Assembly (NCBI GenBank): GCA_963676565.1
Contig: OY781089.1
Coordinates: forward strand, 832,001-896,000
Length of the DNA stretch: 64,000 nt
DNA from: Halarcobacter sp.
Lineage (GTDB): Bacteria > Campylobacterota > Campylobacteria > Campylobacterales > Arcobacteraceae
Direction of reading: 5' to 3'
Shown: positions 1 through 13,300 of the stretch, piece by piece
How positions within the stretch are numbered: the stretch's first letter is position 1
Layout: the number at the start of each line of letters is the position of its first letter
Made by a program: the position numbers and the translations under genes
The notes under the pieces: model-generated
Told to the model about the DNA's origin: nothing
Database searches by the model: none
What the model saw: only the letters and a program-made list of their open reading frames with translations

Positions 1-1
1 T

Positions 2-2701
2 TTAATTATCAATCTAACTGATAAAGCTTTCTCAAATGAAGTTCAAGCACTTATGGGAGCTGTTTCATATAGTTCATTAAATGATTACTTTATTAATACA
101 ACTAGAACTATTAATATGGAAATCAATGATGGTGGAAATGGTGGAACAGCTACTGCTGCATTAAGTTCAAAAGATGCAATAGTAGAAATCACTCCAGTAA
201 ATGACTTACCTGTTATTGATACTGGTGAAACAAAATTTGAAATGGAAAAAGTATTAGGTTCTACAACAGTTGGAACTAGTGAGGATGGAAGTTTATACTT
301 AACTGGAATCTCATTTAGTGATGTTGATGAAACTAGTGATGTTACAGTTGTATTAAAAACAACAGATACAACAACTCAAACTGATACTATGAGTATCTCA
401 AATGGAACTATAAGTGCAGGTGAAACATTCACTTGGGGAGATGGTTCTAACTCTGTAACTGTTACTGCAGCAGCAGGTGATTCAGCTGATAGTATCGCTC
501 AAAAGTTAGTTGATGAAATAAACAATGACTCAAATTTAAATGGTGCTTATACAGCTTCTATATCAGGTAATTATGATGGAAAATTTAGTGTTTCTGCACT
601 TGATATAGATAATATGTTTACAAGTACAGTTAGTGATAGTTCAACAAACACAGATATGACAGCTCAAACTACACAAGAGGTTTATGGATTATTAACAGTT
701 AAGACAGGAGTTACAAATGGAGTAACTGATATAACTGGAAATGGAACTAAGAGTGTAACTTTAGTTGGAACTTTAGCTGAGATTAACACTACACTTGCTC
801 AAAGCGATGGATTAAAATTTGTTGCAGGAAATGGAAATGATGTAGTAACTCCAGGAGTTAACTTCTTAAGCATGAGTATTACAGATAGCCAAAGTGGAAG
901 TGAAAGCTTCAATAAAGAAGTTGTAGTTTTACCAGCTGTTCCAAATAGTTATAGTCAAAATATAACTTTAGAAGAGGATGGTTTTGCAACATTTGATCTT
1001 GGAAGTTTAATTACTGATATTAATGATAATAGTGGTTACTATACATTTGGATTAGTGGGAGAAGCAGGTGAAACAGAAGAGCTTCAAGATGGATCTATTA
1101 ATATTTTAAATCTTGGAACTATTTCTTCAACTCCTACAGTTATTACAAATGGTAATGGTGATGAGATTGGATTTAACCTTGATAATGGAACTTTAATTTT
1201 AGAAAATGATGGGGTTTTAGGTTCTGATTTTGCTAAGTTTACATTTACACCAAATGAGAACTGGAATGGAACAGAAGTAATCTATTATCAATATACTTCA
1301 GGTGATGGAAAAACTGGACCTGTTTCAAAAATCCTTTTATATACAGGTGCAGTAAATGATGCTCCTGAGATTACATCTGGTGATATATTAAATGTAGATG
1401 AAGATACTTCAATCTCATTTGATAGTGCAAATGGAACTAGAATAGTAATTGATGATTTAGATGTAACAAGTGAAGAATTAGAAGTTACTTTAGATGTGAC
1501 AAATGGTAAAGTTACATTAAATGATACAACTGGTGTTAGTATTTTAGAAGGAACAGATTCAAATGCACATATAAAAATTAGAGGTTTATTAACTGATTTA
1601 CAAAATGCTTTAGACAATATGTCTTATCAAGGTAATCAAGACTTTTATGGAAATGATTCATTAAAAATTGAAGTAAATGATAAAGGAAATATTGGAGCAG
1701 CTGGTAATGCATTAGTTACAACTAAAACGATTGATATTACAGTTAATCCAGTAAATGATGCTCCTATTAAATTTTCTGATGAAAATCTTGATACAGAACT
1801 TAATTTTGGTGATGAATATTCTCAAGATATATCTTACATGTTTAGTGATGTTGAAGATAGTAAATGGGATATGGATTTTATTGCAACAGGATTGCCTTAC
1901 GGGATAACATTAGATCCAAGAAGTGGGTTAATTAGTGGTAGAGCATTATCTTCAGGAGTTTATACTGTAGTTGTTACAGCATATGATACAGGTACGCCTG
2001 TTTTATCTGCACCAAGTAAAACTTTTGAGATGTTAGTAATTGCACCTCCAGCTCCAGAAGCACCTGCAGAAGACACTTTGGTTAATAAAACTCAAAATGA
2101 CGAAGCTGATGAAGGTCAAAATGGATTTGGTAATGGTCAAAATCAAGAAGGTGACAATAATGGAGATGATGGTAATCTTGAGATTACAAGAACAGAACTT
2201 ACTTCTATAGTAAGAGATGGTGGACAAGACCAACCTACTGTTGTATCTGCTGGATTTACTGTTGATGTATCTGATAGTGGGCAAATTAGATACAATGATG
2301 AATCCAACCAAGCTTTTGAAACTGTAGGATTAGTTGTTGAAAGAATGGAAATTATTCAAGACCAAATTGAAATTGAAGTTATTGATACAAAAGCTGGTCA
2401 AAAATATATTGCTACATTAGCTGATGGAAATGCTTTACCTCCTTCTTTATCTTTTGACCCAAATACAGGTGTAATCAAAGGAACTTTACCTGCTGGTGTA
2501 GAAGAACTTGAAATTAGTATCAGAGCTTTATCTGATGATGGAACAACAAGAATCCTTAATATTAAAATTGATATTAATGAGTTAAAAGAAAAAGCTAAAA
2601 CAAACGCTGAAGCAGAGTTCGATACATTAAAAAATCAATTCAAGGCAGAAAGTTATAAAATGACTGAATATGGAAGTTATGTAACTTCACTTTTTAGTTA
2701 A
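2..2701 (+). CDS. C-terminal part of a giant Ig-like/cadherin-like repeat surface protein (adhesin); 5' end lies outside the window
   Basis: The frame is open from base 2 (tta att atc ... ctt atg), so the ATG at 53 is internal. It has repeated cadherin/tandem-95-like boundaries (TPVNDLP, GAVNDAP, NPVNDAP) and putative Ig (He_PIG-like) motifs GLPYGITLDPRSGLISG and LPPSLSFDPNTGVIKGT. Composition is acidic and T/D/G-rich. Confidence 0.85.
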   Translation, partial: LIINLTDKAFSNEVQALMGAVSYSSLNDYFINTTRTINMEINDGGNGGTATAALSSKDAIVEITPVNDLPVIDTGETKFEMEKVLGSTTVGTSEDGSLYLTGISFSDVDETSDVTVVLKTTDTTTQTDTMSISNGTISAGETFTWGDGSNSVTVTAAAGDSADSIAQKLVDEINNDSNLNGAYTASISGNYDGKFSVSALDIDNMFTSTVSDSSTNTDMTAQTTQEVYGLLTVKTGVTNGVTDITGNGTKSVTLVGTLAEINTTLAQSDGLKFVAGNGNDVVTPGVNFLSMSITDSQSGSESFNKEVVVLPAVPNSYSQNITLEEDGFATFDLGSLITDINDNSGYYTFGLVGEAGETEELQDGSINILNLGTISSTPTVITNGNGDEIGFNLDNGTLILENDGVLGSDFAKFTFTPNENWNGTEVIYYQYTSGDGKTGPVSKILLYTGAVNDAPEITSGDILNVDEDTSISFDSANGTRIVIDDLDVTSEELEVTLDVTNGKVTLNDTTGVSILEGTDSNAHIKIRGLLTDLQNALDNMSYQGNQDFYGNDSLKIEVNDKGNIGAAGNALVTTKTIDITVNPVNDAPIKFSDENLDTELNFGDEYSQDISYMFSDVEDSKWDMDFIATGLPYGITLDPRSGLISGRALSSGVYTVVVTAYDTGTPVLSAPSKTFEMLVIAPPAPEAPAEDTLVNKTQNDEADEGQNGFGNGQNQEGDNNGDDGNLEITRTELTSIVRDGGQDQPTVVSAGFTVDVSDSGQIRYNDESNQAFETVGLVVERMEIIQDQIEIEVIDTKAGQKYIATLADGNALPPSLSFDPNTGVIKGTLPAGVEELEISIRALSDDGTTRILNIKIDINELKEKAKTNAEAEFDTLKNQFKAESYKMTEYGSYVTSLFS

Positions 2702-2712
2702 TCTTTTTAATA

Positions 2713-2743
2713 AACCAATAAAGAAAAAATTTCTTTATTGGTT
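2713..2743 (+). terminator. Stem-loop after the adhesin gene (probable intrinsic terminator)
   Basis: aaccaataaagaaa-aaa-tttctttattggtt, a perfect 14-bp inverted repeat starting 12 nt after the stop codon; the U-tract is weak. Confidence 0.6.
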
Positions 2744-2866
2744 CTCTCAAACTATTCTTTAATAAAATTTATATAAATAATAAAAATATATTTATAAATG
2801 ATACCCTTGTAATACTATATTTATGTAAAGTAAAAAATAAAATAATGACTTAAATAAGGAAAAGAT

Positions 2867-4213
2867 TTGAGTAATGATATTTCAAAATTATTACAGTATG
2901 AACATAATTTAAGAGAATGTGATAATGAAAAAGAATTATATTATTCAATTGTAAATCAAACTAGAGAATTAGTTGATTATGAACAAGCAATTTTATTTAC
3001 TGTTGATTTAAGTAGAAAGCCTAAAGTTATTGGGATTTCTGATATTGTAACTGTAGATAATACTTCACCTTTTGTTCAGTTTATGCAAGATTTACTAAAA
3101 GATATATTGTCTAAATATTCTGATGATGAATTAAGATTAATAGATATAAATAATGATTTAGAGGAAGGTTTAAAAACTCAACTAAGAGAATATTCTCCCT
3201 CAAATCTAGTTTATATTCCATTGAAAATTATTAAAAATAGTATTGAAATAGAATATTTTTTAATTTTAACAAAAAATAAAATTTATGAAGATAAAGAATT
3301 AGAAATATTAAAATATATATCTTCTTCAATAAAATATTCTTTGTTTGCTATGAGTAGAGACTCTCTTTTAACAAAGTTAAAAAACTACAATTTTAAAAGT
3401 AGCTATTTTTTATATGGACTAGCTATTATCGTTCTAGCAATGTTTATTCCTGTAAAGATGAATGTTATAGCACCATGTACAATTGAACCTAAAAATCCAT
3501 TTATTGTTACTTCTCCAATTGAGGGAGTTGTTAAAGATATAAAAGTAAATTCAAATGATTATGTAAAAGATAACAAATATTTAGTAAAACTAGAAGATAT
3601 TGATTTAAAAAACTCTTACGAAGTTGCACAAAGAAGACTTGATACTATAAAAGCTGAATTATATAGTGCAAAGCAAGCAAGTTTTTATGATGTTGATAAA
3701 AAAAGTCAAATAAAAAGATTAGAAGAAGAAGTTAAACTAAATGAAGCAGAAGTTGAATATGCAAAATCCTTATTAGATAAAACAGATATTTATTCAAAAA
3801 AAGAAGGAATTGTAATCATTGACAATCCAAATGAATGGAAAGGTAAACCAGTTGTTACTGGTGAAAAAATACTTTCAATTGCAAATCCAAAAAATGTTGA
3901 GATTGATATTATGCTTTCTGTTCATGATGCATTATTTTTAAAAGAAGATGCAGATGTTTCAATCTTTCTTGATAATAGAGTTTTTGAATCATGGAAAGCA
4001 AAAGTAACTAATATCTCATATAAACCAGAATTGACTCCAGAAAATAGTGTTGTTTACAAAATTAATGCAGAGTTTATTGATTTATCACAAAACAATGAGA
4101 TTCCAAAAATTGGTCTTAGAGGTACTGCAAAAATCTATTCAGAAAAAGTCACCTTGTTTTTTTATTTATTTAGAAAACCTATAACTAGTTTAAGACAAAT
4201 GTTAGCGTGGTAA
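2867..4213 (+). CDS. HlyD-like membrane fusion protein with N-terminal GAF-like domain
   Basis: TTG start behind an AAGGA RBS. About 170 aa soluble N-domain, one TM (YFLYGLAIIVLAMFIPV), lipoyl half-motifs (VTSPIEGVVKDIKV; IYSKKEGIV), a coiled coil, and the C-terminal IGLRGTAKI typical of MFPs. Confidence 0.75.
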   Translation: MSNDISKLLQYEHNLRECDNEKELYYSIVNQTRELVDYEQAILFTVDLSRKPKVIGISDIVTVDNTSPFVQFMQDLLKDILSKYSDDELRLIDINNDLEEGLKTQLREYSPSNLVYIPLKIIKNSIEIEYFLILTKNKIYEDKELEILKYISSSIKYSLFAMSRDSLLTKLKNYNFKSSYFLYGLAIIVLAMFIPVKMNVIAPCTIEPKNPFIVTSPIEGVVKDIKVNSNDYVKDNKYLVKLEDIDLKNSYEVAQRRLDTIKAELYSAKQASFYDVDKKSQIKRLEEEVKLNEAEVEYAKSLLDKTDIYSKKEGIVIIDNPNEWKGKPVVTGEKILSIANPKNVEIDIMLSVHDALFLKEDADVSIFLDNRVFESWKAKVTNISYKPELTPENSVVYKINAEFIDLSQNNEIPKIGLRGTAKIYSEKVTLFFYLFRKPITSLRQMLAW

Positions 4214-4217
4214 AATA

Positions 4218-6350
4218 ATGTTTGGTGCACAAGAACAAGAAATAACTCTTCCTAAAATAAGAGAAGATATAAAACTTATGGATAGTGAACCAGCTGAAGA
4301 TGGTACTAAACAATGGATGCTTTTTGACCCTATTCAAAACAAATATTTTATAATAGGAATAGATACTTTTGATTTAATAAACCTATGGGAAGATGGAATC
4401 TCAAGCACAGATTTTTTACAGAAATTAGAAAAAAATGATTATGAATTAGATGAAGAAGGTTTAAGTACTTTTATTAATTTTTTAAATAACTCTGGTCTTT
4501 CAAAAAGTAAAGATGCAAATGATGCAAAAAAATTGTATGAACAAAAGCAAAAAGCTAAACAGTCCCCTTTTAAATGGTTGATTCACAATTATCTATTTAT
4601 AAAAATACCAATTTTTAAACCAGATAAATGGCTTACTAAGAACTATAATAAAATAGATTTTATGTATTCAAAAATTTGGAATTATTTAATACTTACTATA
4701 GGTTTAATAGGGATATTACTTGTTATTCAAGATTGGGAAAACTTTTCATCTACTTTTATGTATTTGTTTTCAAGTGAAGGGATGATGTATTATTTCTTAT
4801 CTTTAGTTTTTGTAAAAAGTTTTCATGAATTAGGTCATGCTTTTACAGCAAAAAGATATGGGTGTAAAATACCATCAATGGGTGTTGCATTTTTAGTAAT
4901 GTTCCCTGTTTTATATACTGATACAACAAATGCTTATGCTTTAAAATCAAAATATATGAGATTAAGAATTGCCTTAGCTGGAATGAAAGTTGAAATTTAT
5001 TTAGCTATGATAGCAACTTTTTTATGGTCATTTTTACCAGAGGGTCCTTTAAAAAGTATAGCCTTTATTATTGCAACAACTAGCTGGATTACTTCTCTTT
5101 TAGTTAATATCTCTCCATTTCTTAGGTTCGACGGTTATTATGTTTTATCAGATTGGACAAATACAAAAAATTTACAACCAAGATCCTTTGCAATGGCAAA
5201 ATGGTTTGTAAGAAAATATATCTTTGGTTTAGAAGAAGTTGAACCTGAAAATATGTCTATTTCTAGAAAAAGATTTTTTATAATCTATGCGATAGGTACC
5301 TGGATTTATAGATTCTTTTTATTTTTAAGTATTGCTTTTTTAGTTTACTATTTTGCATTTAAAGTTTTAGGAATAATACTTTTTCTAGTTGAGATTATTT
5401 GGTTTATATTTATGCCAGTATTTAAAGAATTGAAATATTGGTTTGAAAAAAGATCACAGGTTAGTTTTAACAAAAGAAATATCGTCTCTTTAGTTGTGGC
5501 TAGTTTAATACTTTTTGCTTTATTGGTTCCTTGGAGTAGTAAAGTTTATATGCCTGCTGTTCTAGTAGCTGAAGACTTAACGGATATATATAGTCCTAAA
5601 AATGGCTTTATTAAAGATATTTTTGTAAAAAATGCTCAAATAGTAAAAAAAGGTGATTTATTATTAGAAATAGAATCTGAAGAATTAGACTTTAATATTA
5701 AAAAAGTAAAAAAAGAACTTGAAATCTTAAATATTGATTTAAATAAAATTAATGTAAATAAAGACTTATTAAACAACAGATTTGTCCTTGAAGAAAATTT
5801 TTCTAAAATGAAAAAAGAGTTAGAAGGTTTATATAAATTAAGAGACTCTCTTAAATTAAAAGCACCTTTTTCAGGCACTATTTATTTTAATGATGATTTT
5901 AAAATAAAACAATATGTAAATAAAAAAGAAGCAATCTTAACTATATATAATAATAGAAGTTCAAAAGTTGTGGGCTTTTGTGAAGATGTAGATTATCAAT
6001 ATTTGAATGAATACAGTAATGGTAAGTTTATATCCAATATCCCAAATGTAGATACAATAGAAGTTTTTATGGACAAAGTATCAAATATCTCTTTAGTAAA
6101 TTTAGAATATGAAGAATTAAGTTCAGTTTATGGTGGAAAGATTGCAACTAGACAATCACAAGAGAAAAATCAAAAAGCCTTAGTCAGTGAAAAAGCCTAC
6201 TTTAAAGTAGAGGCAAAGATTGAAAACTTAGATATTAATTTTAAAACAAGAGTTGTAGGTGAGCTTATAGTTGAATCTGAAAAATCAAGTTTCGTAACTA
6301 AAATTTGGAAGAAATTATATAATGTTTTAGTAAGAGAAAGTAGTTTTTAA
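4218..6350 (+). CDS. Site-2 protease (peptidase M50) fused to a HlyD-like membrane fusion domain
   Basis: HExxH zinc motif (FHELGHA) and NxxPxxxxDG motif (NISPFLRFDGYY) within multiple TM segments. The C-terminal part has lipoyl halves (IYSPKNGFIKDI; LKAPFSGTI) flanking a coiled coil. Confidence 0.85.
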   Translation: MFGAQEQEITLPKIREDIKLMDSEPAEDGTKQWMLFDPIQNKYFIIGIDTFDLINLWEDGISSTDFLQKLEKNDYELDEEGLSTFINFLNNSGLSKSKDANDAKKLYEQKQKAKQSPFKWLIHNYLFIKIPIFKPDKWLTKNYNKIDFMYSKIWNYLILTIGLIGILLVIQDWENFSSTFMYLFSSEGMMYYFLSLVFVKSFHELGHAFTAKRYGCKIPSMGVAFLVMFPVLYTDTTNAYALKSKYMRLRIALAGMKVEIYLAMIATFLWSFLPEGPLKSIAFIIATTSWITSLLVNISPFLRFDGYYVLSDWTNTKNLQPRSFAMAKWFVRKYIFGLEEVEPENMSISRKRFFIIYAIGTWIYRFFLFLSIAFLVYYFAFKVLGIILFLVEIIWFIFMPVFKELKYWFEKRSQVSFNKRNIVSLVVASLILFALLVPWSSKVYMPAVLVAEDLTDIYSPKNGFIKDIFVKNAQIVKKGDLLLEIESEELDFNIKKVKKELEILNIDLNKINVNKDLLNNRFVLEENFSKMKKELEGLYKLRDSLKLKAPFSGTIYFNDDFKIKQYVNKKEAILTIYNNRSSKVVGFCEDVDYQYLNEYSNGKFISNIPNVDTIEVFMDKVSNISLVNLEYEELSSVYGGKIATRQSQEKNQKALVSEKAYFKVEAKIENLDINFKTRVVGELIVESEKSSFVTKIWKKLYNVLVRESSF

Positions 6351-6352
6351 AA

Positions 6353-7036
6353 CTACTTTTCTAATCTAGAATTTTTTTCTTCAATCCCAGATAAACCAAA
6401 TCTTCTAGCTATCTCTTGTTTAATTTGGTCTGGATTTATATTTTTAGAAGCAAGGGCAACCATACAGTGATAAACTAAATCAGCAGCTTCATAAACTATC
6501 TCTTCTTTGTCATCATCTTTTACTGCAAAGGTAAATTCTCCAGCTTCTTCAACAATCTTTTTAAGCATAGAGTTTTGTTTACCATTTAAAAGTTTTGCTG
6601 TGTATGATTTTGTTGGGTCATCATTTTTTCTTGACTCTATTACATGGTAAAGGTTATCAATAACTCCATATGCTGATGTTGTATCTATCTCTACTTCTGA
6701 TGTTGTTTCTTTTGTTTCTAAGTTTGTAAAGAAACATGATTTTCTTCCTGTATGACAAGCAACACCAGTTTGCTCAACTTTTAATAAAAGTGTATCATTA
6801 TCACAATCAATTAAAATATCTTTTACATCTTGAATATGTCCAGAGCTTTCACCTTTTTTCCAGATTCTTTGTTTAGTTCTAGAAAAATAGTGAGCTTGTT
6901 TTGTTTTTATTGTTAAATCTAAAGCTTCTTTATCCATATATGCCATCATCAATACTTCATTTGTACTTGAATCTTGTGTTATTACTGGAACCATGCCATC
7001 AACTTTTTCCCAGTTTATTAATTCACTATTTGTCAT
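6353..7036 (-). CDS. hisIE: Bifunctional phosphoribosyl-AMP cyclohydrolase / phosphoribosyl-ATP pyrophosphatase
   Basis: WKKGESSGH, DCDNDTLL, ACHTGRKSCF, SYTAKLL, KKIVEEAGE, EAADLVYH. Confidence 0.96.
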   Translation of the reverse strand: MTNSELINWEKVDGMVPVITQDSSTNEVLMMAYMDKEALDLTIKTKQAHYFSRTKQRIWKKGESSGHIQDVKDILIDCDNDTLLLKVEQTGVACHTGRKSCFFTNLETKETTSEVEIDTTSAYGVIDNLYHVIESRKNDDPTKSYTAKLLNGKQNSMLKKIVEEAGEFTFAVKDDDKEEIVYEAADLVYHCMVALASKNINPDQIKQEIARRFGLSGIEEKNSRLEK

Positions 7037-7044
7037 TTTTTACC

Positions 7045-7299
7045 TTAAAATTTTGATCCAATATTGATATTTACATTATCAATTGTTTTAGTTTCTTTAT
7101 TTACACCAACATCCCCATCAATTTCAAGTTTCTTTTTTCTTTTTTGTTTCTGTTTTACTTGGGGAACTTCATTTAAAAGATTTTCTTTCTTTTCATAATA
7201 CTCTTTTGTTTTTTCAAGTTTAATTGTATCATCAATAATAATTTCATCTTGCGAGTATGTTATGTTTAAGAGTATTAGAAAAAGAAATAGGGGTTTCAT
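7045..7299 (-). CDS. Small hypothetical exported protein
   Basis: Signal-peptide-like N-terminus (MKPLFLFLILLNITYSQ); sits in tandem with its neighbours; C-terminal beta-strand ending in F. Confidence 0.55.
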   Translation of the reverse strand: MKPLFLFLILLNITYSQDEIIIDDTIKLEKTKEYYEKKENLLNEVPQVKQKQKRKKKLEIDGDVGVNKETKTIDNVNINIGSKF

Positions 7300-8450: not shown

Positions 8451-9371
8451 TTAGTTTACGTAAGTTAAATACTTAACATACTTTTCATTTTTACCTTGAA
8501 CTACATCAAAGTAAGCCTTTTGAAGTGCTTCAGTTACGCTACCTCTTTCTCCTGCTCCAATAATTCTACAATCAACTTCTCTAATTGGAGTTACTTCTAC
8601 AGCAGTTCCAGTGAAGAATGCTTCATCTGCAATATAAATCTCTTCTCTTGTAATTCTTCTTCTAACAACTTCATAACCCATATCTTTTGCAATATCAATT
8701 ACAGTTGCTTGTGTAATTGATTCTAATGAGTTATCATTTGGTGGAGTAATAATAACTCCATCTCTTACAATAAAGAAACAAGCACCAGAAGCTTCTGCAA
8801 TATAACCTTGGTCATCTCTTAATAAAGCTTCATCATAACCAGCTTCAACTGCTTCAAATTTTGCCATTTGAGAGTTTAAATAGTTAGCAACCGCTTTTGC
8901 TTTTCCCATACCTGAAGTATTAGGAGTTCTTGTCATAGATGAAATTTTTACTCTAACACCTTTTTTCATACCCTCTTCACCAAGATATGCTCCCCATTCC
9001 CATGCAGAAATCGAAACTTGTGCAGGAGCATCTTTGTGATAAAGTCCCATAACTCCATAACCAAGATATACTAAAGGTCTAATATAAGCACCTTCAAATA
9101 ACTCATTTTTTTGTAATAATTCAACTTGAGCATCATTTAACTCTTTTGCTGAAAAAGGAACATCAATTAAAGTCATTTTAGAAGAATTTAAAAGTCTTTT
9201 TGTGTGTTCTTCTAATTTGAAAATTGCACATCTTCCATCATGAGTTTTATAAGCTTTTGTACCTTCAATTGCACCATTACCATAGTGTAATGTGTGGCTT
9301 AATACATGAACTTTTGCTTCATGCCAATCAACAAATTTCCCATCCATCCAGATGTATTTTGCTTCAGTCAT
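8451..9371 (-). CDS. ilvE: Branched-chain amino acid aminotransferase
   Basis: LHYGNGAIEG, YIRPL, KAKAVANY (PLP lysine), LESIT, FFTGTAVEVTPI. Start moved to MTEAKY (ATG at 9371, AGGA RBS upstream) because the ORF-track extension overlaps the divergent gene. Confidence 0.95.
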   Translation of the reverse strand: MTEAKYIWMDGKFVDWHEAKVHVLSHTLHYGNGAIEGTKAYKTHDGRCAIFKLEEHTKRLLNSSKMTLIDVPFSAKELNDAQVELLQKNELFEGAYIRPLVYLGYGVMGLYHKDAPAQVSISAWEWGAYLGEEGMKKGVRVKISSMTRTPNTSGMGKAKAVANYLNSQMAKFEAVEAGYDEALLRDDQGYIAEASGACFFIVRDGVIITPPNDNSLESITQATVIDIAKDMGYEVVRRRITREEIYIADEAFFTGTAVEVTPIREVDCRIIGAGERGSVTEALQKAYFDVVQGKNEKYVKYLTYVN

Positions 9372-9640
9372 TTTTATAATCCTATATATCGTTTGAAATT
9401 TAGCAGATAGTCTATCTAAGGTTTTATTAAAGTTTAGTGAGATAAAAGATTTATATAATTTGTAATAAGAGTTTTTTATATATGGTCTATTAATATTCCA
9501 CCAAAATAAATAAGAAAGTGAAAAAGAGTAACTTGTTACTCTCTTTAGGATTTGCTTCTTTAAAGGGAATTTACTTCCCTTGGTAAAAGAAGTAATAAAT
9601 ATGTGGTCCCTAAAAAATGGGACATTTTTTAGGAGATTAG

Positions 9641-10237
9641 ATGAGCCAACAAGAGTTTTGGAATAGTAAATTTTCAAGGGAAGGTTTTTTATATGGCTTA
9701 AAACCAAATGGTTTTATAGCTTCAAAAATCAAATCATTTCCAAAAGATGCAAAGGTTTTATGTTTAGGTGAGGGTGAAGGAAGAAATGCAATCTTTCTAG
9801 CAAGAAGAGGTTTTGATGTAACAGCAATTGATGCTTCTGATGTGGGGCTTGATAAACTAAAACAAAGAGCAAAAGAAGAAAACCTTGAGATAAAAACAAT
9901 ATGTATGGACTTAAATCATTGGGAAGATGATTCAAAATATGATGTAATAGTTGCTTCATTTTTGCATATGTATAAAAAAGATAGAGATAAATTGTTTGAA
10001 AAAATCGATGACTGTTTAAATGTTGATGGTTTATTTGTAGGGGAGTTTTTCTCTCAAAAACAAATATCTTATAGTAGTGGTGGACCAAAAGATTTAGACC
10101 TTTTATACACAGTTGAAGATTTTAAATCACATTACACTTTTAGTGATGGAGAAGTTAAAGAACAAATTACAATTTTAGATGAGGGTAAAGGTCACCAAGG
10201 TGAGGCTTGTGTGATAAGGGTATTTTTAGAAAAATAG
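9641..10237 (+). CDS. Class I SAM-dependent methyltransferase (TehB-like)
   Basis: VLCLGEGEGRNAIFLA motif I, AIDAS, SSGGPK; AGGAG RBS. Confidence 0.88.
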   Translation: MSQQEFWNSKFSREGFLYGLKPNGFIASKIKSFPKDAKVLCLGEGEGRNAIFLARRGFDVTAIDASDVGLDKLKQRAKEENLEIKTICMDLNHWEDDSKYDVIVASFLHMYKKDRDKLFEKIDDCLNVDGLFVGEFFSQKQISYSSGGPKDLDLLYTVEDFKSHYTFSDGEVKEQITILDEGKGHQGEACVIRVFLEK

Positions 10238-10327
10238 CCTAAGCCCCCTTTACAAAATTTTAATCTAATTTTAAATATACTATAGACCTTTTACAATAAC
10301 AAATTTAATAAAATTTAAGAAGACTTA

Positions 10328-13300
10328 ATGACAGAAAAAATAAAAAAATTAATTGAAGAAAAAGTTTTAATTATCGATGGAGCTATGGGTACACAGCTTC
10401 AACTTGCAGATATCAAAAATGAAGAATGGCAATATGAAGGGAATGATTTAGAAGGTTGTAATGAACTTTTAAATTTAACTGCTCCACATATTCTTGAAAC
10501 TATTCATGATAATTATGCCAAAGCAGGTGCAAATTTTTTAACTACAAATACTTTTGGTTCAATGCCCTGGGTTTTAGATGAGTATGGAATACCTGAAACT
10601 TCTTATGAATTATCAAAATTAGGTGCTCAAATTGCCAACAAGTCTAAAGAAAAATATAGCACTCCTGAAGATCCAAAATTTGTATTTGGTTCAATAGGTC
10701 CAGGAACAAAACTTCCATCATTGGGACATATAAAATATGATGAGATGTTTGAAGGGTATAAAATCATGGCTAAGGGTTTAGCTGATGGTGGGACAGATGT
10801 ATTTTTATTAGAAACTTGTCAAGATCCATTACAAATAAAAGCTGCCCTACATGCTTTAAATGAAGTAGCTCCTCATATACCTATTATGGTAAGTGTTACT
10901 ATTGAGATGTCAGGAACTATGTTAATTGGAACTGATGCCATGACAATTGCAGCTATATTAGAGCCTTTTAATATTTTATCTTTAGGATTTAACTGTGGAA
11001 CTGGGCCAAAACAAGTTCATAAACATGTTAAAGCTTTAAGTGAAGTTTGTAAATTCCCAATCTCTGTTCATGCAAATGCAGGACTTCCTCAAAATAGAGG
11101 TGGACAAACTTATTATCCAATGGGACCAGATGAGTTTACAAAATTACAAAAAGAGTTTCTTGAGATAAATGGAGTTAGTTTTTTAGGTGGTTGTTGTGGT
11201 ACAACACCTGAACATATTAAGGCTTTAAGTCAAGGTGTTAAAGGGATTAAACCTTTAAAACCTTGTGGATTTTTAAAAGCATCATTAGCTTCACTATTTA
11301 ATGTTGTTCCTTTAAAACAAGACCCAGCACCTTTATTAATTGGTGAGAGATCAAATGCAACTGGATCTAAAGCCTTTAGAGAGCTTCTAAAAGCAAATGA
11401 TTATGAAGGAACACTTTCAGTTGGTCAACAGCAAGTAAGAGCTGGTGCTCATGTTATTGATGTAAGTGTTGGTTTTGCTGGACGTGATGAAACTGGTGAT
11501 ATGGATAAAGTGGTTGAGCTTTATTCTCAAAAAGTTTCACTACCACTTATGCCCGATTCTACTCAAGTTCCAGCACTAGAAGCTGCCTTAAAACAAATTG
11601 GTGGACGATGTATAATCAACTCAGTAAACCTTGAAGATGGGGAAGAGAAGTTTGATATAGTTTGTAAGTTGGCTAAAAAATTTGGAGCTGCACTTGTTTG
11701 TTTAGTTATTGATGAAGTTGGAATGGCAAAAACAAAAGAGCGTAAGCTTGAAATTGCTGAAAGAATCTATGACTTATGTGTAAATAGGCATGGCTTTAAA
11801 GGTGAAGATTTAGTATTTGATATGCTTACCTTTACAATTGGTTCAGGTGATGATGAATATAGAACAGCAGGAATTGAGACACTTGAAGCTATTAGGGAAT
11901 TTCAAATAAGACATCCAGAAGTTGGAACAACTTTAGGACTTTCAAATATCTCATTTGGATTATCTGTAAATGCAAGAATATATTTAAATTCTATCTATTT
12001 AGACCATTGTGTAAAAGCTGGATTAACATCTGCTATTGTAAATGTTAAACATATCTTGCCATTAAATAAAATTAGTGAAGATGATAAAAAAGCTTGTGAT
12101 GATTTAATTTTTAATAACCAAGAAAACGGTGACCCATTATTTAAATTTATTGAACATTTTTCAAATGTTGCTGATATGGAAGAGCAAAGTGATGAAGAGT
12201 ATCAAAAACTTGAACCAATTGATAAAGTTAAAAAACTTTTACTTGATGGTGATAAAGATAGAATGCTTCCACTTGTGGATGAATTAAGACACACAGTTAA
12301 TCCTGAAATTATTGTAAATGAATGGTTGATTGATGGAATGAAAGTTATTGGAGAGCTATTTGGAAGTGGACAAATGCAATTACCATTTGTACTTCAAAGT
12401 GCTGAAACAATGAAAGCAACAGTTGATGCTTTAAACCCATATTTACCAAAAGAGGAAAAAGCTAGTGAAACAGTTTTAGTTTTAGGAACTGTTAAAGGTG
12501 ATGTTCACGATGTTGGTAAAAACTTAGTTGATATTATTCTTTCGAATAATGGATTTAAAGTTATAAATATTGGTATTAAAGCTGATTTAAACGATTTTAT
12601 AATAGCTGTACGTGAACATAAAGCCCAAGCAATTGGAATGAGTGGCTTACTTGTAAAATCAACTGCTGTTATGAAAGAAAATTTAGAAACACTTCAAAAA
12701 GAGGGGATTGATATCCCTGTACTTTTAGGTGGAGCTGCACTTACAAAAAGTTTTGTAAACGATTATTGTAGACCAATTTATGATGGACCAATTTTTTATT
12801 GTAGAGATGCCTTTGATGGTGTTGTTTCTATGCAAAGAATCGAAAGTGGAGAGCTTGATAATACAGCACTTGCAGCAGATTTAGTAGATGATGAAGAGAT
12901 TGCCAAAAAAGAAGAGGCTGAAGTAAAAATCGATGAAGCGGATGTAGTTTTACCAGAACCAGGAACTTTTACATTCCCTCCATTATGGGGAAGAGTTGCT
13001 TTATATGGAGATTCTGTAGATCAAGATTTAATTTATAAATGGATAAACCATAGGGTTTTATTTAGACAAAGATGGGGATATAAAAGGGGTAAACAAGACT
13101 CACAAGAATTTTTAGAACATGAAGAAAATGTTGTGAAACCACTTTATGAAAAATTAAAAGATGAATTTTTTGAAAAGAAACTTTTTGACCCAATTGCTAT
13201 TTATGCATATTATCCATGTATTTCAAAGGAGAATAAACTTTATATTTTCTCTCCTGAATATGCCTTCCATAGTGAAAAGGAAGCAAAAAATATTCCACCA

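Follow-up and report, generated by a model that had tools for sequence, protein, structure and literature searches.

Substrates of classical type I secretion carry an uncleaved C-terminal signal, usually located past RTX nonapeptide repeats. RiPP recognition elements (RREs), the leader-peptide binders of pathways for peptides that are ribosomally synthesized and then post-translationally modified (RiPPs), are to our knowledge known so far from the biosynthesis of small peptides alone. The inner-membrane partners named in the abstract of a Chem Rev review of tripartite systems (PMC8277102) are ATP-binding cassette (ABC), resistance-nodulation-division (RND) and major facilitator superfamily (MFS) transporters alone. 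Among M50 (site-2) proteases, MpaP is described in excerpts of PMC10028931 as a site-2 protease that removes the leader and bears a fused N-terminal RRE, and EpeP is thought, according to a portion of PMC10885120, to act on its peptide as protease and exporter alike. For giant proteins, truncated SecA motors without the scaffold and wing domains have been proposed as exporters in Omnitrophota (bioRxiv 10.1101/2023.11.21.568195, in part), and two LEPRxLL giants flanking a TolC-like gene in Chlorobium chlorochromatii are expressed and reach the partner cell, with no M50 protease mentioned in the excerpts of the 2026 bioRxiv preprint that reports them. Here we describe a gene cluster from Halarcobacter sp. 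in which a giant LEPR-XLL protein is encoded together with a TolC-like channel and three adaptors, one of them fused to an M50 protease with an RRE-like domain. The cluster extends into the 64,000-nucleotide stretch under analysis (the window, G000:C1:832001-896000, where G000:C1 denotes coordinates in the source genome, a single contig of 3.34 Mb with 28% G+C), whose proteins have their closest relatives in Arcobacter and Aliarcobacter.

The five genes lie on one strand and encode, in order, an OEP/TolC-like outer-membrane factor (OMF), a short adaptor, the giant, a GAF-like adaptor and the M50-adaptor fusion; the window contains the 3' half of the cluster (Table 1). The channel and short adaptor genes are 8 nt apart, the short adaptor and giant genes 9 nt, the giant and 448-aa adaptor genes 165 nt, and the 448-aa adaptor and fusion genes 4 nt. 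On balance, we favor the view that this cluster is a dedicated, leader-dependent, TolC-coupled machine for the export and processing of the giant. A more specific proposal is put forward tentatively, as a possibility that falls a little short of probable: an undescribed secretion path for giant proteins in which the RRE reads the LEPR leader, the M50 protease cuts it and the product leaves through a duct of three adaptors and a TolC-like channel, with no ABC, RND or MFS transporter and with a motor that either acts in trans (SecA) or is dispensable.

The original prediction, which drew on the window's letters, had recognized a giant Ig/cadherin-repeat gene, two membrane fusion protein (MFP) genes 4 nt apart and a convergent hisIE at the end of the locus. 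All of these hold, with He_PIG Ig-like domains (Pfam) in the tail of the giant and cadherin-like domains elsewhere in its 5,115-aa open reading frame (ORF). Reading of the upstream DNA also recovered the TolC gene, the third MFP and the N-terminal DUF4347 domain that it had guessed to be there. Its remark that Walker A and ABC signatures are lacking extends to the whole cluster, as neither Walker A nor LSGGQ occurs in any of the five proteins. A dedicated ABC exporter at the 5' end of the adhesin gene, which had been named as a finding that would count against the idea, is likewise absent: the 20 kb on the upstream side and the 6 kb on the downstream side encode no ABC exporter, and the closest ABC gene encodes a 243-aa nucleotide-binding domain (NBD) on the opposite strand, where it forms an importer set with a BPD_transp_1 permease and thiamine genes.

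The fusion protein scores 34.1 bits for Peptidase_M50 (PF02163) and 36.3 bits for HlyD_3, above the respective Pfam cut-offs of 27.2 and 22.2, in keeping with its earlier description as an M50 protease joined to an MFP. Each of the three adaptors of the cluster likewise clears a curated threshold, that of HlyD_3 for the pair encoded in the window and that of RND_mfp for the short one. It belongs to a large family, with 11,307 clusters at 50% identity recovered at E<=1e-3 and 3,376 at E<=1e-30; nearly all of the top 150 clusters are full length, at 700-720 aa. In the AlphaFold model (predicted local distance difference test score, pLDDT, 84.4), an N-domain, about seven transmembrane helices and a periplasmic adaptor succeed one another at the residues given in Table 1, and HELGH (residues 203-207) lies inside a predicted helix (186-213). 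Across an alignment of 27 diverse, hand-picked homologues, H203, E204, H207, N297, P300 and D305 are invariant (27/27), and G306 is nearly so. The aspartate of the NxxPxxxxDG motif presumably supplies the third zinc ligand of M50/site-2 proteases, and the invariance of the HExxH and NxxPxxxxDG residues suggests that the protease is probably active.

Fold searches with the full model are consistent with this division, returning adaptors (Z 13-14.7), RseP (Z 8.9) and the lasso B1 RRE (Z 8.5). The match of the M50 core to Aquifex RseP spans 160 aa (model residues 187-382) with a root mean square deviation (rmsd) of 3.5. Foldseek with the full 710-aa model returned adaptors alone, with MacA first (E 2.6e-13) and then AcrA, EmrA and MexA; in VIA, the adaptor part is closest to a MacA-MexA chimera (Z 14.7) and EmrA (14.2). 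The best named NCBIfam match to the fusion is the daptide leader peptidase NF041824, at 138.2 bits, which is under the cut-off and marks a relative of that family and not a member. The NHLP and bacteriocin adaptor families match weakly.

The N-domain consists of three strands (residues 19-22, 33-37 and 42-46) followed by three helices (48-55, 63-72 and 79-91). An RRE was suspected from this topology, and the domain was then modelled alone for fold searches. Against 48,161 chains, VIA-align placed at the top lasso B1 with its leader (Z 8.4, rmsd 2.9, 82 aa), TbiB1 with its leader (8.2), TigE (7.7) and PqqD (7.6), with TbtB, MibB, MadB, the PbtF RRE, ThcOx, CteB, LynD, MccB, NisB and McbBCD in the next rows; we take 14 of the 22 top rows to be RRE-bearing RiPP enzymes. 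The best Foldseek rows were TbiB1 with leader, PqqD, lasso B1 with leader, CteB, TigE and LynD (E 0.05-0.8, probability up to 0.99). Because nearly every credible row in these searches is a leader-binding domain, the N-domain is read as an RRE, and the modelled structure of this domain, which is predicted to be cytoplasmic, is that of a leader-peptide binder. By sequence, the candidate kin were glycoside hydrolase 57 chains (E 0.14, PDB) and scattered single Pfam matches, which were rejected as chance.

Contact between this domain and the giant was modelled with residues 1-440 of the fusion and the first 80 aa of the giant, both supplied as alignments. The complex reached an ipSAE of 0.49 (0.49, 0.42 and 0.50 in the individual runs) against 0.01 for the best control, which the tool grades as weak support. 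Among 157 solved complexes, 116 attain the pass mark, and so do 2 of 215 mismatches; of those that attain it with a score of 0.60 or less, only 18 are among the 157, together with both mismatches. At least 42% of the contacts agree between runs, and the pLDDT of the partner is at least 37. The model raises the odds of leader binding a little.

The protein that would be recognized is acidic, with 10% Asp and a single Cys, and its final 899 aa and stop codon lie in the window, the first 12.6 kb of its gene being upstream. In all 5,115 aa there is no hydrophobic segment, no Sec-like h-region and no GGxGxD motif, and the earlier observation that the adhesin lacks an RTX array therefore holds for the entire giant. 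With no Sec, Tat or RTX signal, the giant has a basic N-terminus followed by a conserved leader, ALEPRILFDGAA. Its N-terminal sequence, MAKRRSQKRKPLISALEPRILFDGAA, is matched over residues 15-32 by NF012209 (LEPR-8K, LEPR-XLL), a family defined by a motif of roughly 24 aa with which very large proteins begin, at 17.2 bits (cut-off 17). DUF4347 (PF14252) follows at residues 72-218 (158.9 bits, E 1.2e-46, over the cut-off), and the remainder outside the He_PIG-containing tail includes two Laminin_G_3 stretches and cadherin-like, Big_9 and C-type lectin (Lectin_C) domains. The source genome contains exactly one leader-bearing ORF and one module.

To compare these features more widely, GTDB species genomes were scanned with the fusion alignment, giving 600 pattern matches and 550 confirmed relatives, of which the best 80 loci were kept; neighbors within 10-kb flanks were called by searching the six-frame ORFs with phmmer, for which the proteins of the window served as queries. 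The same leader motif begins a large neighbor in 30 of these 80 loci. In an alignment of 27 of 31 leaders, from which the near-duplicates L028, L043, L046 and L081 were excluded, L16, E17, R19 and D23 are invariant (27/27), and the linker that follows is variable and acidic or Gln-rich. At the other end, the motif [LF]xxQ[LIFVM] occurs 20-49 residues from the terminus in 23 of 37 module-linked giants (last 50 aa of each), compared to 44 of 1,501 internal 50-aa windows (2.9%) of the same giants. The C-terminal tail is a candidate second recognition element, and the motif could serve as another signal for export or anchoring. In the tails of close relatives, compared across L006-L087, YGxxLxxL is found after this motif.

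DUF4347 itself was considered as a marker of the system and rejected, as two Campylobacterota genomes contain DUF4347 giants with no fusion and G245, the one of the two whose locus was retrieved, also lacks the leader. Its 2,031-aa DUF4347 protein (L086, G245:C10:172001-192000) begins with the domain itself.

The arrangement around the fusion is conserved. The 80 loci come from Campylobacterota, Alpha-, Beta- and Gammaproteobacteria, Nitrospirota, Planctomycetota and Desulfobacterota, and include Colwellia, Aliarcobacter, Sulfurimonas, Pelagibacteraceae, Nitrospira, Scalindua, Desulfovibrio, Methylomonas, Marinomonas, Pseudomonas, Cupriavidus and Phytobacter. Where the flank is at least 1.5 kb, a homologue of the GAF-like adaptor stands directly 5' of the fusion in 67 of 70 loci; the short adaptor accompanies it in 57/67 with at least 2.6 kb, and the OMF in 43/60 with at least 4.5 kb. 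Some of the missing short adaptors and OMFs belong to loci organized as in the cluster described here, in which a giant separates them from the module and pushes them past the 10-kb flank. An ORF of at least 1,000 aa (or at least 600 aa where cut by the edge) adjoins the module in 31 of the 33 loci with at least 9 kb on both sides, the exceptions being L070 and L077. In Cupriavidus, an edge-cut upstream giant begins with the leader just outside the locus. Because the arrangement recurs across phyla, it is far beyond chance.

The genes between module and giant, compared in 12 loci, are variable and include a sulfotransferase, a tail-collar domain protein, a glycosyltransferase, HDOD, LuxR and IalB proteins and further cadherin ORFs; no transporter or ATPase is among them in these 12 loci, and a conserved additional gene that might supply energy was therefore rejected. 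All four Pseudomonas loci (L067, L069, L081 and L085) have a phage-tail-collar-domain protein in this position; L067 and L069 also have a sulfotransferase there, and L081 a PMT_2 glycosyltransferase. The products of such intervening genes may modify the giant. In Marinomonas rhodophyticola (L013), the GAF-adaptor (8653-9988) and the M50 fusion (9992-12102) are both split over several frames, and this module is probably decaying.

Leader and fusion also occur together when they are sought independently. The fusion was detected at E<=1e-60 in 53 of the 400 Gammaproteobacteria that were scored (a count that includes G574 and G419, which are flagged as unpublished). A 30-base degenerate pattern for LExRxx[LF]D[GA]A was found in 15 of the 400 genomes, and all 15 are fusion-positive against the background of 53/400; in nine of the 15, the pattern is on the same contig and within 20 kb of the fusion. 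The reversed control pattern was found in eight genomes, none with the fusion. No P value is attached to this co-occurrence, because related genomes are not independent, but the association is plain. In 301 Campylobacterota genomes, the fusion is present in two, the source genome and G131, with the same five-gene order in both, and DUF4347 is present in four.

Of the remaining parts, the 448-aa adaptor has a predicted cytoplasmic N-domain (residues ~1-175), one transmembrane helix (~176-202) and a periplasmic HlyD-type adaptor, which scores 42.2 bits for HlyD_3 and 33.4 bits for HlyD_D23. The MFP part of its earlier description as a GAF-like MFP protein is thus secure, and the GAF-like label is weakly supported. 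The protein itself has no GAF match at E<=1, and among 21 homologues, four match PF01590 (best 1.1e-4) and two match GAF_2 (PF13185); its language-model look-alikes include GAF clusters at 0.91-0.92. Elsewhere in the source genome, a type I locus (L004) has an adaptor with an N-terminal PAS domain and a channel with a SPOR domain, so that adaptor sensor domains recur in this genome. An unusual trait for an outer-membrane factor is the C-terminal extension of the TolC-like channel, about 150 residues in which SH3_3-like repeats occur.

A possible course of export can be drawn from these parts. The cytoplasmic RRE-like domain of the fusion would bind the LEPR leader of the giant, as the complex model weakly supports, and the moderately hydrophobic, Pro- and Gly-containing stretch of the leader would then be presented to the intramembrane HExxH/NPDG site and cut, as the catalytic residues and the RRE-fused M50 peptidases of RiPP pathways suggest. 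Judging from their families, the two adaptors with inner-membrane anchors and the third, soluble one would bridge to the TolC-like channel, and the unfolded, nearly Cys-free, acidic giant would exit with no periplasmic intermediate. More speculatively, transport might be driven by a motor in trans or by folding outside the cell, and the GAF-like domain might gate the system on a small ligand. Cleavage of the adhesin by the M50 protease, as the original prediction had it, is retained as a likely role, but with the RRE-like domain in the fusion and the conserved leader on the giant, the likely target is the N-terminal leader and not a release site in the body of the adhesin. The companion idea that the M50 protein stands in for the ABC component agrees with a TolC/adaptor assembly that has an M50 protein and no ABC partner; however, with its RRE-like domain the M50 protein would do more than stand in, and the idea does not extend to the energy source, since the SecA-like and ABC genes of distant clades argue that a motor is still needed.

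The near loci are uniform in encoding no such motor. An ABC exporter membrane domain is found in none of the 80, and any ABC NBD in 17, in varying places and mostly on the opposite strand, with none in the other 63; a SecA-like ORF is found in none, 62 of them having at least 2.5 kb downstream. A SecA-like motor at the locus, considered as a candidate, was accordingly rejected for this clade, as it is absent from the cluster described here and occurs in distant clades alone. The source genome has a single full-length SecA.

More distant gammaproteobacterial clades were represented by 24 loci, with fusions at E 1e-34 to 1e-97 against the window's protein. Seven of these loci have giants with a DUF4347-type N-terminus and no motor, and five of the seven carry a LEPR/LERR...SAD variant of the leader. 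The leader variant tracks the fusion clade, with FDGAA in the near clade and LSADL in a distant one. This second dialect (LEPRLLLSADL / LERRLLYSAD in L095, L097, L099, L100 and L104) is paired with a separate fusion clade, which suggests that leader and reader co-diversify. The window thus belongs to a clade with no motor, within a wider family whose motors come and go.

Several results weigh against the proposed pathway. In 10 of the 24 distant loci, a SecA-like ORF of 655-771 aa lies directly 3' of the fusion, and in one, an ABC protein of 634 aa does; a motor is therefore probably needed, and here would act in trans. The module alone is probably not sufficient, as it encodes no energy source. 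This argues that the M50 domain is not by itself a replacement for a motor, and the data do not show it to be a pump. The RRE assignment has its own difficulties, as the top Foldseek rows (E 0.05-0.2, probability 0.95-0.99) do not reach E<=0.001, a Z of about 8 is middling by the tool's rating, the PqqD family of Pfam matches none of 19 N-domains at E<=10 and a profile of the N-domain retrieves no relevant chain from the PDB sequences. The complex score is a weak pass alone. The rarity of the module in Campylobacterota (2/301) marks it as accessory and probably horizontally moved, and the DUF4347 giant of G245, which has neither leader nor module, indicates that DUF4347 is not tied to the system. 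Finally, the four canonical type I systems of the source genome could export the giant in trans.

Two of these points invite further description. The SecA-like ORFs are in L089, L090, L093, L094, L098, L103, L105, L107, L108 and L109, and SecA residues ~31-613 are matched in the two for which the range was read out; speculatively, the housekeeping SecA would be the obvious candidate for a motor in trans, because these distant clades carry a truncated SecA-like gene at that position. In L092 (G433:C2:75001-95000), the ABC locus, the order is short adaptor, adaptor, OMF, an 843-aa protein, M50 fusion and the 634-aa ABC protein, and the 843-aa protein begins MRKLEQRVVLDAAAV, with a LEQRVVLDAA leader, so that a small leader-bearing substrate stands beside an ABC partner.

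Export of the giant in trans by one of the type I systems would leave the local module as a LapG/LapD-like device for anchoring, trimming or release at the envelope: the N-terminus would be held by the RRE and set free by the protease. Six ABC_membrane ORFs are present in the source genome, of which four belong to complete canonical type I loci, one is MsbA-like and one is a 588-aa exporter. The four loci would provide the motor that the module lacks, and one of them (L005) adjoins a 2,782-aa DUF5801 protein; however, each has its own adaptor and channel, leaving no orphan ABC. The conserved C-terminal tail of the giants lies where type I signals lie, but the giant itself has no RTX nonapeptides. 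Similarly, an adaptor equipped with a GAF-like sensor would fit a release that is regulated, but a release device alone would not need a TolC-like channel and three adaptors. Two streamlined alphaproteobacterial genomes of 1.3 Mb, of which the completeness is not given, have the module and a giant of more than 2,600 aa with a single 580-aa ABC_membrane ORF each, which also tells against this explanation. We consider it unlikely.

Site-2 proteases are classically signaling enzymes, and it could be argued that the conserved catalytic residues and the GAF-like sensor domain next door belong to regulated intramembrane proteolysis, in which the state of the envelope or of adhesion is reported when cutting of the leader frees a small N-terminal peptide or alters the adaptor complex, the giant being exported otherwise. 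This seems quite improbable given that the genes conserved beside the module include no anti-sigma factor, sigma factor or other regulator, and that a role in transport is suggested by the joining of the protease to a TolC-type adaptor and by its strict association with giants and a TolC-like gene. We give very little credence to the idea that the module handles an unrelated small peptide or metabolite and stands beside giants incidentally. RRE-M50 proteins are otherwise known from RiPP pathways, and the weak matches to NHLP and bacteriocin adaptor families could be read in the same way, but the giant neighbor in nearly all fully flanked loci (31/33) and the fusion in every leader-positive genome (15/15) speak against it, as does the lack of any short precursor or modifying enzyme conserved in the loci.

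Table 1. Coordinates of the gene cluster, its parts and the related loci of the source genome. Positions are those of the window unless preceded by G000:C1.
Feature	Position	Strand	Evidence or remarks
OEP/TolC-like channel, 655 aa	G000:C1:816643-818610 (L001:17643-19610)		Lipoprotein signal LAGC; OEP E 1.2e-32
Short adaptor, 241 aa	G000:C1:818619-819344		Cleavable signal peptide; RND_mfp 116 bits (cut-off 94.9)
Giant LEPR-XLL/DUF4347 repeat protein, 5,115 aa	G000:C1:819354-834701 (L002:354-15701); window 2..2701	+	ORF traced upstream
Giant C-terminal tail, last 28 aa, EFDTLKNQFKAESYKMTEYGSYVTSLFS	2615..2698	+	[LF]xxQ[LIFVM] motif common to module-linked giants
Hairpin, perfect 14-bp stem and 3-nt loop	2713..2743	+	12 nt past the giant stop codon; no T-run
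GAF-like adaptor (adaptor 2), 448 aa	2867..4213	+	HlyD_3 and HlyD_D23 over Pfam cut-offs
RRE-like/M50/periplasmic adaptor fusion, 710 aa	4218..6350	+	Pfam, NCBIfam, predicted structure
RRE/PqqD-like winged-helix domain, residues 10-97, predicted cytoplasmic	4245..4508	+	Model pLDDT ~90
M50 membrane core, residues ~136-436	4623..5525	+	HELGH at 4824-4838; NxxPxxxxDG (N297, P300, D305)
Periplasmic adaptor part, residues 440-710	5535..6347	+	Lipoyl, short alpha-hairpin (488-544), beta-barrel
hisIE	6353-7036	-	Convergent; 2 nt past the M50 fusion gene; closes the cluster
Canonical type I loci	G000:C1 ~266-284 kb (L003), 1897-1915 kb (L004), 2971-2990 kb (L005), 557-567 kb (L115)

The hairpin after the giant gene folds as RNA at -14.2 kcal/mol (z -6.6, equalled by none of 200 shuffles). 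It is a possible transcript end or attenuator between the giant and the two downstream genes, and the amount of giant mRNA relative to that of the adaptor and protease genes may depend on it. Four RNA sequencing runs that have a species label in common with DNA runs holding the locus gave 0 reads over positions 1-7100, a result that says nothing for or against expression. The G+C content of those two genes (within 2500-6350) is 24-26%, compared to 28% in the genome and 32% in the giant, which, together with the rarity of the module in the phylum sample, is consistent with horizontal acquisition. A Mrp/NUBPL ATPase gene lies 5' of the channel gene, as do the thiamine genes and importer-type ABC set of the opposite strand. 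On the other side, an 84-aa ORF with no family (7045-7299, - strand) separates hisIE from an SPFH/Band-7 gene. The ilvE ORF (8451-9707, - strand) as listed has about 110 surplus N-terminal residues, and its true start is probably later, because the family match begins at residue 113.

The RRE fold, the recurrence of the module beside giants, the co-occurrence of leader and fusion and the common C-terminal tail motif of the giants are new here. In the literature outside subscription journals, no description was found of an RRE-M50-adaptor fusion or of its link to LEPR giants, nor any paper on a machinery for LEPR-XLL proteins, which appear there in mentions alone; the literature on DUF4347 contained nothing on secretion machinery, and a review of site-2 proteases (PMC10202637) has no mention of HlyD or of a secretion system. 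LEPR-XLL giants are common in genomes, and some reach 20,000-36,000 residues. If the proposed export and processing pathway is correct, it would explain the route of a large class of megaproteins to the surface, provide a tripartite envelope system with a protease and not a pump as its inner-membrane partner, and extend leader recognition by RREs beyond small peptides to the largest proteins of bacteria. A comparison of the clades with no motor, with a SecA-like gene and with an ABC provides a natural experiment on how such transport is energized.

The closest comparison is with the type I systems of giant adhesins (LapA-LapEBC, SiiE-SiiCDF and HlyBD-TolC), in which a TolC-family channel and HlyD-family adaptors are likewise encoded with the substrate. 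The substrates are also alike in being giant, acidic, Cys-poor and rich in repeats, with no Sec signal and with a conserved C-terminal tail. However, the cluster and its 80 relatives have no ABC exporter, the giant has no RTX repeats and there are three adaptors where type I systems have one; a conserved N-terminal leader is present here, with an RRE-M50 protease as the inner-membrane partner. Because it has no ABC component, the locus is not a classical type I system, although a TolC-family channel and adaptors are encoded. The tripartite pumps MacAB-TolC, AcrAB-TolC and EmrAB-TolC resemble it in that MacA, AcrA and EmrA are the nearest structural matches to its adaptor parts and its channel is a lipoprotein OMF, but theirs is an energized inner-membrane transporter, and none is encoded here.

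Other comparisons concern the leader. In the peptidase-containing ABC transporters (PCATs) of leader-bearing bacteriocins, a protease of the export apparatus also reads and cuts an N-terminal leader, and the Gram-negative examples use an adaptor and TolC; their protease, however, is a cytoplasmic C39 cysteine protease joined to an ABC transporter with peptide cargo, whereas here a membrane M50 protease with an RRE, and no ABC, is paired with a cargo of thousands of residues. The daptide peptidase MpaP/DapP (NF041824, the best NCBIfam match of the fusion) has the same order of an RRE N-terminal to an intramembrane site-2 protease, and EpeP/YydH and TglG are further RiPP M50 proteases that were compared. 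Unlike these, the fusion has an additional C-terminal periplasmic adaptor and scores only 138 bits against the daptide cut-off of 300, its neighbors are TolC, adaptors and a giant and not RiPP-modifying enzymes, and the leader is LEPRxxFDGAA and not ELExMEAP. The SecA-like and giant genes of Omnitrophota are matched by the distant fusion clades, in which a SecA-like gene of 655-771 aa lies downstream, but not by the clade of the window (0/80). The locus thus shares the scaffold of type I secretion and the leader-cleavage logic of the PCATs, and we rate it as an unstudied, widespread variant of the tripartite, TolC-dependent kind.

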